IMG/VR virus record: IMGVR_UViG_2574180160_000007
Source of the DNA: a virus
Taxonomy: Duplodnaviria > Heunggongvirae > Uroviricota > Caudoviricetes
DNA: 34,744 nucleotides
Direction: 5' to 3' (one strand)
The position numbers were made by a program, and so were the translations under genes. Shown one piece after another: positions 30,987 through 34,744 of the stretch. Positions within the stretch are counted from its first letter, which is position 1; the number at the start of each line of letters is the position of its first letter. The notes under the pieces are model-generated. The model was not told the origin of the DNA, made no database searches, and saw nothing but the letters and a program-made list of their open reading frames with translations.

Positions 30987-32858
30987 TTATGATGATGCCG
31001 GTGCATTTATCTCCAGCACCAGACTTTCTATCTCAACGCCATACGCTGCATTTTTGGTAATATCCGTCAGCGTCAGCGCATTCAGCCCCAGTGTCAGACT
31101 GTCTTTTATGACCTGGAATGCCGGGCCAGCCACTCCATTCAGTTTCGGAGTAACCGTGGCACTGCCGGCGGTGAACACCAGCTCCAGCGTCTGCCAGTCG
31201 TTACTGTAATTCCCGAACTCGCCCAACTTTGTGTTTCCGGCTTTCTTGTGATGCATCAGATTCAGTTTGCCGTCTGTGGTCTGGGTGAAGAACGACATCA
31301 GGAACGGGTTACCAGTCCCGGTCATCGCCACGACGTCAGGTAACGCTACATCGGTATACAGATAAATTCCCAGACCGAACTGGTTGTTGGTCAGTGCGCC
31401 TGACAGTCGAAACTTACAGCTCAGTCTGCCACCCCGTGTCAGCAGGGAGACCGCGTCATCCACCGGATGCATCAGGGACCAGGTTTTATTGCTCTGCTTG
31501 GTAACCTTAAACACACCATCTTCCAGCGCAACACTGCCGCCGGTGATGGTCCAGCCCTGCGCAGCAGCCTCTCCGGCTGTCGGCAGCAGGGAGACTGTAC
31601 GAACGGATGTGTCACCATCAGACGGCCCCGATGGCGTGTCGCCGCCGGGCGAGGGTTTAATCTCCGGTGCGGTACCGCTGATGAAGGCGCTGGTTCGACC
31701 AACTGCGTTCAGAATAGCGGTTGCCAGGCGATCCGAAATAATGCCCCTGCGCGCCCATGAACTGAAATGTGTCGGACGATTTGACGATACCCAATTACCA
31801 TTACTACGGGATTGCGCGCCGTAATAACCTGCATCAGCAATATCCGGGTCTTCTGCCGGTAAGTTGGTGGGCGTGTTGTTGCCGTTACCGTCGGTCATGA
31901 ACGGCACAAAGAAAACGTTGTCGCTCTCCCTGTTTTTGTACGCGCCGTAGACGGAGTCATACTGTGTGCCGTATGTGTTTTTCCAGTAATACGTCGTGTC
32001 GCCACAAATCCACGGTACAACTGCAGCACTGCCGCCATGGCACTGCGCGTTAAATCCGGAAAGGTCAGTACGGAACTGCTTCAGCATGGCCGTGAACAGG
32101 TCCGGTTGCTGTGCGTAGGTGGCAGCGCTCATGTCAAATTCGCCCTGCATCCAGCACACCGCCAGCAACACATTTTTCGGGTTCTTCTGTAATGCCGCTT
32201 TGGTGCGTGCGATCAGGTCCTGATATAACGGTTTACCCACACCCCAGCGTGCCGAATCCTGGCTGGCCCCCGTGTCCGCACTGAATGTCCCCTCCGCGCC
32301 CTGGGTGAATGCCGAACCACCACGACAGCATGGTACCAGCAGGATCCCCGCGTTATTCGGGATATACGGAAGCAGTTTTTTGGCAATATGTAAGCCCTGG
32401 CCGACACAGCCGTACTGCCCTTTGCTCAGGTCTGCCTTCGGATGATTCAGTGCGCTCATATCCTGAACATCATGCAGGCAGTGGTCTGCCGGAATGATGT
32501 CGTTAAATGCGCATGCTTTACCACCGGGAGTCACTGTGTTGCGACGGGCCAGTTGCTTAATGCGTGGGTGGGGCGCATCGTAAGAATCCGGAAGCGGAAG
32601 CCCTTCACCGTAAGCCATGGCATTGGATTGCCCGGCCAGTACGATGACGTAGTACCACTCCGGCTCAGTTGCACCACTGACGACCACATCACCTTCTGCT
32701 GCAATCGCCTGCATCAGGGTATAAGGGGTTATGGCCACCGGACTACCAAACGGCTGCCAGCCCTCTTTCAGTTTATGTGTCAGCTTTTCCGCAAGATCTG
32801 ACGGCGACGCCGCCCTGACAACATCATAGTGTTTAAATGCCATGGTTCTTTCCACCAT
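30987..32858 (-). CDS. nanS-p: Prophage-type sialate O-acetylesterase (NanS-p-like: DUF1737 N-terminus, SASA/SGNH esterase core, C-terminal carbohydrate-binding-like domain)
   Basis: 623 aa; N-terminus MAFKHYDVVRAASPSDLAEKLTHKLKEGWQPFGSPV; esterase block VIVLAGQSNAMAYGEG; located immediately upstream of the lysis cassette as in Stx phages. Confidence 0.8.
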   Translation of the reverse strand: MVERTMAFKHYDVVRAASPSDLAEKLTHKLKEGWQPFGSPVAITPYTLMQAIAAEGDVVVSGATEPEWYYVIVLAGQSNAMAYGEGLPLPDSYDAPHPRIKQLARRNTVTPGGKACAFNDIIPADHCLHDVQDMSALNHPKADLSKGQYGCVGQGLHIAKKLLPYIPNNAGILLVPCCRGGSAFTQGAEGTFSADTGASQDSARWGVGKPLYQDLIARTKAALQKNPKNVLLAVCWMQGEFDMSAATYAQQPDLFTAMLKQFRTDLSGFNAQCHGGSAAVVPWICGDTTYYWKNTYGTQYDSVYGAYKNRESDNVFFVPFMTDGNGNNTPTNLPAEDPDIADAGYYGAQSRSNGNWVSSNRPTHFSSWARRGIISDRLATAILNAVGRTSAFISGTAPEIKPSPGGDTPSGPSDGDTSVRTVSLLPTAGEAAAQGWTITGGSVALEDGVFKVTKQSNKTWSLMHPVDDAVSLLTRGGRLSCKFRLSGALTNNQFGLGIYLYTDVALPDVVAMTGTGNPFLMSFFTQTTDGKLNLMHHKKAGNTKLGEFGNYSNDWQTLELVFTAGSATVTPKLNGVAGPAFQVIKDSLTLGLNALTLTDITKNAAYGVEIESLVLEINAPASS

Positions 32859-33103
32859 CTGAAAAATGATTCTTTAAAATACCTGACATGTAATACAGAA
32901 AAAACACAAAACCATACCTTAATTAAAAACCTCATCATCAAGCAGATATGCATGGATAAACTACAAGACGAGATATAAACCACCCTGCATTTAAATAAAC
33001 AATAAACAACATCAGAAAAATAATTCTGCTCTATGGTTTACAATCAAAAATATCATTTATACTTTTCAGAACATCACCAGCAAGGCATAAACAAGGAAAC
33101 TAA

Positions 33104-33439
33104 ATGAAGTGGATTGTGATTGATACAGTTATCCAGCCATCATGCGGAATATCTTTTTCAGTCATATGGAGTAAAATAAAATTAATAATCTGGTATCAAT
33201 CGGATGCTTTCTTACCTCCTGAAAGTATATTTACACTGACTCACACAGGCATCATGCTCAATAACAAAGTGCTGCCTGTAACCATTTACAACGTAGTACC
33301 ATTCAATAAAACATTCTGGAATTTAATCAAAAACAGCCAGGAATGCCCTACAAATACAGATAACGTATTGAATGAATGCTTTAATAACCGTTGCACTCTG
33401 CAAATATGTCCTTATGGGCTAAAACAACAAAGTCCATAA
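33104..33439 (+). CDS. Hypothetical 111-aa Cys-containing protein, AT-rich, divergent from the late operon (cargo in the stx slot)
   Basis: ATG with AAGGAAA Shine-Dalgarno; upstream TTTACA/TATACT-like promoter elements; strongly AT-rich relative to neighbours; no family recognised. Confidence 0.4.
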
Positions 33440-33475
33440 GGAGTTTACTCACATCTGACAAAATCAATATAAACA

Positions 33476-33498
33476 GCCCCTCCGGAGAGGGGCTGGAG
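33476..33498 (-). terminator. GC-rich hairpin (CAGCCCCTC-CGGA-GAGGGGCTG) with T-run on the minus strand
   Basis: Perfect 9-bp stem, 4-nt loop; on the minus strand followed by UUUAUAUUGAUUUU. Confidence 0.4.
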
Positions 33499-33886
33499 AG
33501 TGGCGCTATGTGCCATTGCATGGTGCCGGGTGCCTCCCGGTGAATTCAGTACCAGCACCTGAATCCGCGATTATCCCATATACCTACTCGCTGATTGCCC
33601 CTCCGCACAGGGGGATTCACCATGCCAGTTTCTTTTAACAAACTCCCCGCAAACCAGACAACAGTCAACCGCCTGAATTGTGAAGTATTTAAAAATTTCT
33701 CCCGCTAACTGATACCCGGCTAACAGTCTGGCGTTTTCTTTTTCAGCAACGGGAAAGCAGCAACCACCACACCCGCCACCAGCACACCGTCAGCCAGCAC
33801 TGACATTATCCGGCTGCTGCAATGCCATTCACAAAAACAGTAAGCAATCACTTTTTACCGTAACCGGTGATAATCCAGATATGTAT

Positions 33887-34213
33887 CTACCCCAGATGAG
33901 TAATCCGAAGTTCATCCATACCACAGGTCCTGGCTATTCTGTTGTACTCCTGAACAAGAGCAAATAATTCTGAATTAGCCACCATGAACTCATCGCAAAC
34001 CCTCTGTATAGCATCACTATTCAGAATAATAACGTCTCTTCCCGAAAGACGATCAGGAGTACAGAACAAAACTGTCAAACGGCTGAAGGCCTTTGCTCGT
34101 TCTGCATTGACTATATCAATACGCTGCCTAAGGATGAAACACCCCGACGCCTCATCAATATTCACTCTACCCACACCATATGAATGATAAATATTTAATG
34201 CTGAAAAAACCAT
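33887..34213 (-). CDS. Hypothetical 108-aa protein downstream of tRNA-Arg (cargo in the stx slot)
   Basis: ORF MVFSALNIYHSYGVGRVNIDEASGCFILRQRIDIVNAERAKAFSRL...; weak RBS; no family recognised. Confidence 0.35.
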   Translation of the reverse strand: MVFSALNIYHSYGVGRVNIDEASGCFILRQRIDIVNAERAKAFSRLTVLFCTPDRLSGRDVIILNSDAIQRVCDEFMVANSELFALVQEYNRIARTCGMDELRITHLG

Positions 34214-34350
34214 TAGACCGTATAACAAACACTCAATCAACACTTAACAGAACTTTTATTTTTGACAAACATATAATATTTTCAACAATATCCTGAGCCA
34301 GGTATATTTCAGTATAAGGCTCTGCCGAAAGGAATCTGGAAGAATGAATA

Positions 34351-34427
34351 TGGCGCGCTGTACTGGATTCGAACCAGTGACCGATTGCTTAGAAGGCAAT
34401 TGCTCTGTCCGGCTGAGCTAACAACGC
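34351..34427 (-). tRNA. tRNA-Arg (anticodon UCU), phage-borne (argN/argO-like)
   Basis: Minus strand GCGTTGT-TA-GCTC-AGCCGGACA-GAGC-A-ATTGC-CTTCTAA-GCAAT-CGGTC-ACTGG-TTCGAAT-CCAGT-ACAGCGC-G-CCA folds as a canonical 77-nt cloverleaf with TCT anticodon. Confidence 0.85.
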
Positions 34428-34744
34428 TGAATACCGATAATGGACCGCCATCGGGGACCCGCCCCATAAGCGCTAACTTAAGGGTTGAACCATCTGAAGA
34501 ATGCGACGCCTCGGTGCCTCGTTAAGACGATGCCTCGCGTTCTTCAATTGCGTTTTGTAGGCTGTCAGGGATACTGTCCCACGAATGGCCACCTGTAAGC
34601 TCCAGATGACCATTTTTGTTATTCTCCACAACGAGTTAGTTCTTCTTTTCGGATCCGGCACTTCTGGGGGGGAAATCCAGCGATGGCTGGATTATGTCGT
34701 CAATTAAAAATGCGGCGAGTAGATTAGCAAATATCCACGCTTTC

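Follow-up and report, generated by a model that had tools for sequence, protein, structure and literature searches.

What does a lambdoid prophage without Shiga toxin (Stx) genes carry at the position where Stx phages hold stxAB? The question is raised by a stretch of 34,744 nucleotides of viral DNA (IMG/VR record IMGVR_UViG_2574180160_000007, here called the window), in which the segment at 32860-34340 sits between a tRNA-Arg gene and a nanS-p-type esterase gene. An earlier note on this DNA had described the segment as uncharacterised cargo in the stx slot. We conclude that it is very probably a moron (accessory cargo) site in the late operon of a non-Stx lambdoid prophage, holding iraL, the gene for a 111-aa anti-adaptor of RssB, and the gene for the prophage small RNA (sRNA) STnc100. 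The late operon of the window is on the minus strand, and the gene order is tRNA-Arg, a 92-aa gene of the phrog_2873 family, a DUF3927 gene, STnc100, iraL, and the esterase. 'Uncharacterised' is thus the wrong word for iraL, which was tested in 2014 (Hryckowian et al. 2014, PMC4045071) and is annotated as an IraM-family anti-adaptor by the Prokaryotic Genome Annotation Pipeline (PGAP), and for STnc100, a curated Rfam family. It remains the right word for the phrog_2873 gene and the DUF3927 peptide.

Both flanks are where the earlier note had placed them. Upstream, a tRNA-Arg gene with the anticodon tct (34351-34427, minus strand) is the sole tRNA that ARAGORN calls in the window, and it matches the Rfam tRNA model with 68 bits. 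Downstream, the nanS-p-type gene (30987-32858, minus strand, from the list of open reading frames (ORFs)) encodes a 623-aa protein with DUF1737, SASA, and DUF6645 domains (Pfam PF08410, PF03629, and PF20350). The segment between them recurs with 100 per cent identity in E. coli O104:H4 2011C-3493, in a non-Stx lambdoid prophage whose genes run Q antiterminator, methyltransferase, tRNA-Ile, tRNA-Arg, tRNA-Arg, the segment, esterase (named 'SASA family carbohydrate esterase' by PGAP in this identical locus), holin, and lysozyme. The potB prophage of E. coli CFT073 matches the 1.6-kb segment with 99 per cent DNA identity and runs from tRNA-Ile through two tRNA-Arg genes, DUF3927, an opposite-strand IraM-family gene, and a DUF1737 stub to the holin. 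Among 5426 complete E. coli genomes, 863 carry the segment at a coverage of at least 80 per cent.

Stx1 phage 75/02 has, one after another, Q, stxA, stxB, STnc100 (minus strand), an opposite-strand sRNA of the AgvB family, and an esterase; the order in JLK-2012 is tRNAs, tciA, tciB (DUF3927), STnc100, and yjhS. The segment keeps the frame of STnc100 and esterase seen in 75/02. Its phrog_2873 and DUF3927 pair occupies the exact place of stxAB or tciAB in other phages, and iraL fills the antisense sub-slot held by AgvB in 75/02. Judged by gene order, then, the segment is in position the stx slot, as the earlier note had proposed. The architecture itself has been published. Tree et al. (2014, PMC4104026) report moron coding sequences (CDSs) 3' of the Q-antiterminated promoter PR', then convergent sRNAs, and then a conserved phage ORF, with AsxR, which is antisense to stx2AB, lying 282 bp 3' of it. 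The segment has little worth as a discovery, since earlier publications cover iraL, STnc100, and the moron-site architecture, and iraL is routinely annotated. No match to AgvB or AsxR (RF02702, RF02703) was found at E ≤ 1 in 32700-34744; AgvB of phage 75/02, the positive control, was found. The latter (positions 4385-4444 of the Shigella phage 75/02 Stx locus, plus strand) scores 56.6 bits against a gathering score of 56 and lies antisense between STnc100 and the esterase.

The anti-adaptor gene occupies 33104-33439 on the plus strand, opposite to the late operon. The ORF is AT-rich, as had been noted, with a guanine-cytosine content of 35 per cent (29 per cent in the upstream spacer) against 54 per cent for the whole window. 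That its protein matches no family, the earlier note's other statement about it, is incorrect. The ORF is identical to IraL of CFT073 at all 111 of 111 residues, and the two are the same RefSeq protein (WP_000871291.1). The NCBIfam model NF007393 ('anti-adapter protein IraM') scores 162 bits (cut-off 121), with residues 1-110 aligned to positions 1-113 of a profile of 114. A phmmer search aligned residues 1-78 with residues 4-81 of the chain in PDB 8TWD, the crystallised IraM core (residues 1-78), at E = 9.1e-32. The gene and its promoter are present in 1441 of the 5426 complete genomes (about 27 per cent), always with at least 90 per cent identity.

Expression signals of its own had also been claimed for this ORF, and they are there. 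A Shine-Dalgarno sequence, AAGGA, lies at 33093-33097, and we read by eye a -35-like hexamer (TTTACA, 33037-33042) and a -10 hexamer (TATACT, 33058-33063). The start of CFT073 iraL, published from rapid amplification of cDNA 5' ends (5'-RACE; PMC4045071), agrees with 33071-33102 at 31 of 32 bases, where 0 matches are expected by chance, and the transcription start site of iraL is therefore at 33071. Together, the promoter and a 33-nt 5' untranslated region (5'UTR) cover 33037-33103 on the plus strand. Over this region CFT073 and the window differ by three substitutions, none of which is in the hexamers.

RssB is the adaptor that hands sigma-S (RpoS) to ClpXP. In exponential phase, IraL of CFT073 makes sigma-S both more abundant and more stable, and its interaction with RssB was found both by two-hybrid assay and by copurification (PMC4045071). 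According to the same study, IraL contacts RssB at its N-terminal domain alone whereas IraM contacts both domains, and iraL transcription was proposed to depend on sigma-70; additional iraL expression data are given in PMC7157518. In the structure of the IraM-RssB complex, the anti-adaptor occludes the face of RssB that binds sigma-S (PMC10844676). In a lysogen carrying the present prophage, iraL would act as shown for the identical protein in CFT073 and be transcribed from its own sigma-70 promoter during exponential growth. IraL would then bind the N-terminal receiver domain of RssB, and sigma-S would not be delivered to the ClpXP protease. The predicted outcome is a stabilised RpoS and a raised general stress response, that is, lysogenic conversion by way of a host global regulator.

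Beyond the iraL stop codon, the earlier note saw about 450 bp without any ORF of 60 aa or more. There is indeed none in 33440-33886, but the stretch is not empty, as it holds both STnc100 and the 43-aa DUF3927 gene. STnc100 (33465-33654, minus strand, sense to the late operon) matches the Rfam model RF02076 over its full length (1-206 of 206) with 132.4 bits (gathering score 47). Published quantitative PCR (qPCR) primers for STnc_100 of Shiga toxin-producing E. coli (STEC) match exactly at 33532-33551 and 33605-33624 and would give a 93-bp amplicon. The STEC paper with these primers places the sRNA 75 nt downstream of the stx2 operon, and with the same primers STnc_100 was detected by qPCR in STEC outer-membrane vesicles, a finding that concerns STEC and not the present strain. 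We expect that STnc100 is also made in the lysogen as a short terminated RNA. On the other strand, PGAP lists a partial 'hypothetical protein' pseudo-CDS (33510-33635, plus strand) in O104:H4 and CFT073, and a 70-aa CDS is annotated there in phage 640R1. The pseudo-CDS is probably an artefact of annotation, running antisense within the STnc100 gene.

A terminator scan placed an intrinsic terminator hairpin at 33474-33495 (minus strand), inside the Rfam match, with a 9-bp stem (7 GC) followed by TTTATATTGATTTTGT. This is the GC-rich hairpin of the earlier note. Its position stands, but its assignment changes. The T-run is on the minus strand, and the hairpin is therefore the terminator of STnc100, at the 3' end of that gene, and not primarily that of the 111-aa ORF. 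From phage to phage, substitutions in the stem compensate one another. The analogy with AgvB was rejected as an argument for a terminator shared between iraL and STnc100; AgvB in 75/02 has a U-tract terminator of its own, back-to-back with the STnc100 terminator hairpin.

Where phages match the segment, their matches break off within STnc100. The match of mEp460_ev081 covers 33517-34340, and that of the vB_EcoS phages covers 32860-33683. In both mEp460_ev081 and E. coli strain 205, a TolA-like gene stands in for iraL and nanS-p alongside the 92-aa gene, DUF3927, and STnc100, while phage 640R1 lacks the 92-aa gene and has iraL, DUF1737, and two copies of STnc100. Because these mosaic boundaries fall within it, STnc100 probably acts as a conserved joint where recombination exchanges the cargo modules on either side. 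Across the window and five of the loci compared, the cargo flanking STnc100 includes stxAB, tciAB, the TolA-like gene, the 92-aa gene with DUF3927, iraL, and AgvB. Two STnc100 copies bracket extra cargo in one of these five (L003) and in a further locus (L005), where an AraC-type regulator and an insertion sequence (IS) are found.

The remaining cargo is less familiar. The frame that ends at 33887 on the minus strand is open to a GTG at 34243 (118 aa), and an ATG at 34213 gives the 108-aa ORF (33887-34213) that the earlier note had reported. Its translation matches phrog_2873 over the full length (E = 1.7e-70, profile 1-108). A profile search of 1.84 billion representatives returned 20 family members only, and the distant ones are 91-95 aa long and align from profile position 17. 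A GTG equivalent to that at 34165 occurs in all three diverged lineages and a Shine-Dalgarno-like element is conserved; in one of the lineages the GTG is preceded by AGGAG and is the earliest start codon. Since the distant homologues begin at profile position 17 and the GTG is conserved, the true gene is most likely one of 92 aa, running from 34165 to 33887. The reported end and ATG are thus real, with a start more likely at the GTG.

A search of 5.8 billion proteins with this ORF gave close copies and a diverged group at 55-62 per cent identity, and the homologues overall lie at 55-64 per cent. One diverged homologue has a like setting of IS element, ORF, STnc100, and DUF1737 esterase. When the window ORF and two distant members were compared with phage genomes by tblastn, mEp460_ev081 alone was matched. 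A scan of genome contigs found a single locus (JAEWMQ010000075.1, 63 per cent identity), a 2.7-kb contig labelled 'MAG: Bacillota bacterium'. This contig may be mis-binned, as the family is otherwise found in Escherichia and Shigella prophages.

It is conceivable, although we consider it unlikely, that this ORF is a chance open frame in a spacer and that iraL, DUF3927, and STnc100 are the only functional parts of the segment. PGAP leaves the ORF unannotated in O104:H4 and CFT073, its Shine-Dalgarno sequence in the window is weak, and the family is tiny. Moreover, the 92/108-aa protein has no Pfam or NCBIfam match and no PDB sequence match at E ≤ 10. Substitution patterns speak for a gene, however. 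The frame stays open between two lineages whose cores share 67 per cent DNA identity, with changes distributed 25/22/43 by codon position, so that third positions dominate. The Nei-Gojobori ratio of non-synonymous to synonymous rates (dN/dS) is 0.27 in this frame, compared to 1.20 and 0.85 in other frames. Together, the in-frame ratio and the codon-position bias indicate a protein-coding gene under purifying selection. Homologues at just 33-42 per cent identity share its length and motifs, and the conserved GTG, with AGGAG upstream in one lineage, also argues against chance. An AlphaFold2 model of the 108-aa version, with a disordered N-terminus, shows a hairpin of two helices (19-51 and 66-97; mean predicted local distance difference test score 72.5) that is confident over the conserved core. 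A Foldseek search of the PDB with the hairpin model returned nothing at E ≤ 0.001, just coiled-coil look-alikes (efflux adaptors and designed helical bundles).

Taking the 92-aa frame as a gene, its neighbour upstream of STnc100 is the 43-aa DUF3927, or TciB-like, gene (33720-33851, minus strand; phrog_1470), which encodes the hydrophobic stretch VLADGVLVAGVVVAAFPLL. The match to Pfam PF13064 (DUF3927) scores 92.7 bits against a gathering threshold of 25, and PGAP calls this gene in the O104:H4 and CFT073 loci. Like stx in Stx phages, the two small minus-strand genes and STnc100 would share the late-gene transcript made by Q-antiterminated RNA polymerase. The real unknown biology of the segment lies in this pair, which reference annotations have missed or left unnamed. 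We speculate that the 92-aa protein has an accessory role, is expressed late, and acts together with its neighbour, the DUF3927 membrane peptide.

The pair might instead form an anti-phage defence, superinfection-exclusion, or toxin module, in place of passive passengers of the late operon, which we judge quite unlikely. Moron sites commonly serve exclusion or act on the host. The DUF3927 peptide is small and hydrophobic, its family is labelled 'TciB-like inhibition of cell division or resistance to colicin' in PHROGs, and it is likewise the second gene of the two-gene cassette tciA-tciB in JLK-2012. Against this, the TciB label is an untested name, the Foldseek search gave no informative fold match, and none of the three proteins of the segment matched any PADLOC-DB family at E ≤ 0.1; a known anti-phage defence system was rejected on this last ground. 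Two further ideas, which may be combined, are doubtful but deserve mention. The 92-aa hairpin protein and the DUF3927 peptide could be an undescribed two-gene host-directed late cargo, and late transcription antisense to iraL could end the stabilisation of RpoS on induction. If so, the phrog_2873 and DUF3927 pair would have a host-directed role in, for example, lysis timing, envelope function, exclusion, or anti-defence.

For the 111-aa ORF, one may ask if it is an orthologue of IraM in the K-12 sense, that is, induced by PhoP under Mg2+ starvation and contacting both RssB domains. The name given by PGAP and NCBIfam, 'anti-adapter protein IraM', points that way, as does the 62 per cent identity between the ORF and K-12 IraM. 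That figure, however, fits the published relationship between IraM and its CFT073 paralogue IraL (58.9 per cent identity; PMC4045071), and the identity of 100 per cent is to IraL and not to IraM. The promoter and 5'UTR agree with the mapped start of iraL. Furthermore, matches to iraL and iraM fall into two non-overlapping groups, each with at least 95 per cent identity (PMC4045071), and the potB-type lambdoid prophage context is that of iraL rather than that of the K-12 iraM locus. Orthology with K-12 IraM is therefore highly improbable, and we read the gene as iraL.

Last, the idea that these ORFs are what decay has left of stx or late genes, named in the earlier note as a refutation of its own reading, has next to no chance of being right and can be regarded as refuted: although the position is exactly that of stxAB in Stx phages and PGAP lists the partial pseudo-CDS at 33510-33635, tblastn of StxA and StxB against 32860-34340 gave no match at E ≤ 10, blastn of stx against the same interval gave chance matches of 11-21 nt alone (E = 0.22-0.78), all three ORFs match intact full-length families, and the pseudo-CDS is antisense within STnc100 and probably an artefact. 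The earlier note was thus right that the segment is free of toxin genes and holds other cargo, and that cargo does not consist of fragments of stx or late genes.

Several observations count against our account of a moron site with a working iraL and late-expressed small genes. The first lies next to the slot. Alignment with the O104:H4 prophage and strain 205 shows that a 3' stub of about 19 nt from a second tRNA-Arg (about 34441-34459) is followed by IS421 (IS4-like), which extends to the end of the window (34441-34744 in all, minus strand). IS421 separates the slot from tRNA-Ile and Q, and strain 205 is annotated in the order tRNA-Arg, IS421 transposase, tRNA-Ile, antiterminator. Only two of the 5426 complete E. 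coli genomes share this IS421/tRNA-Arg junction, and the insertion is therefore rare and recent. By lying between Q/PR' and the slot, it may hinder late-operon transcription from reading through into the small genes, and it may mean that the prophage is defective. Late co-transcription of these genes is itself suggested by their orientation and by analogy with stx. A second set of observations concerns iraL. Because of the 15-bp spacer of its best -35-like hexamer, the iraL promoter went unlisted in our promoter scan of the window. The hairpin 35 nt past the iraL stop has no T-run on the plus strand. That the copy in this strain behaves as IraL is an inference from its identity with the CFT073 protein. 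Finally, the 92-aa gene goes uncalled by PGAP in both reference loci, as mentioned above.

Far from the slot, Rfam IS009 (RF02111) matches at 3459-3657 (minus strand; 225 bits, gathering score 117) and overlaps a 194-aa ORF (3416-4000, minus strand).

The closest known counterpart of the segment is the iraL locus of CFT073 (Hryckowian et al. 2014, mBio, PMC4045071), which has the identical protein and, apart from the three substitutions, the same promoter and 5'UTR. In both, a potB-type lambdoid prophage carries the gene, flanked by the tRNA cluster and by nanS-p/DUF1737. The two differ in that CFT073 retains a DUF1737 stub only, whereas nanS-p is intact in the window, and in that CFT073 has IS200C after Q, whereas the window has IS421 in the second tRNA-Arg. 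The published study places iraL in a 'potB genomic island' without describing a moron slot equivalent to that of stx.

K-12 IraM (PDB 8TWD, PMC10844676) belongs to the same NF007393 family, and it too targets RssB and leaves sigma-S stabilised. Its regulation is different (low Mg2+ through PhoP, as opposed to log phase for IraL), and its gene is beside e14 with no STnc100 nearby. K-12 iraM (positions 5680-7107 of the locus compared) is just outside the annotated e14 boundary and adjoins ycgX (DUF1398); DUF1398 genes also stand beside the lysis cassette in the prophages discussed here (e.g. ydfO in CFT073). Because this adjoining gene type also sits at prophage lysis cassettes, the arrangement suggests that K-12 iraM lies in an old phage remnant, in which no STnc100 or tRNA is left. 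A derivation of K-12 iraM from the same slot was considered and is not shown, as there is no STnc100 near it.

The slots of AsxR and AgvB in enterohaemorrhagic E. coli (PMC4104026) resemble the segment in having moron CDSs, a sense sRNA with a terminator, an opposite-strand gene, and a conserved esterase ORF. The antisense partner in the window is a protein gene, iraL, and not an anti-sRNA, and iraL is without a U-tract terminator of its own, in contrast to AgvB of 75/02. STnc100 (RF02076, related to PasD) is full length in the window and has the same place 3' of a moron CDS as in Stx2 phages. The stxAB morons share the late-operon insertion point and orientation of the 92-aa and DUF3927 genes, and Q-dependent expression is presumed for both; there is no sequence relationship between them, and the cargo of the window is two small genes. 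An RpoS anti-adaptor thus rides in the same late-operon slot as the Shiga toxin of Stx phages. As IraL takes the antisense sub-slot of the anti-sRNAs AgvB and AsxR, this slot recurrently delivers regulators that rewire global networks of the host.

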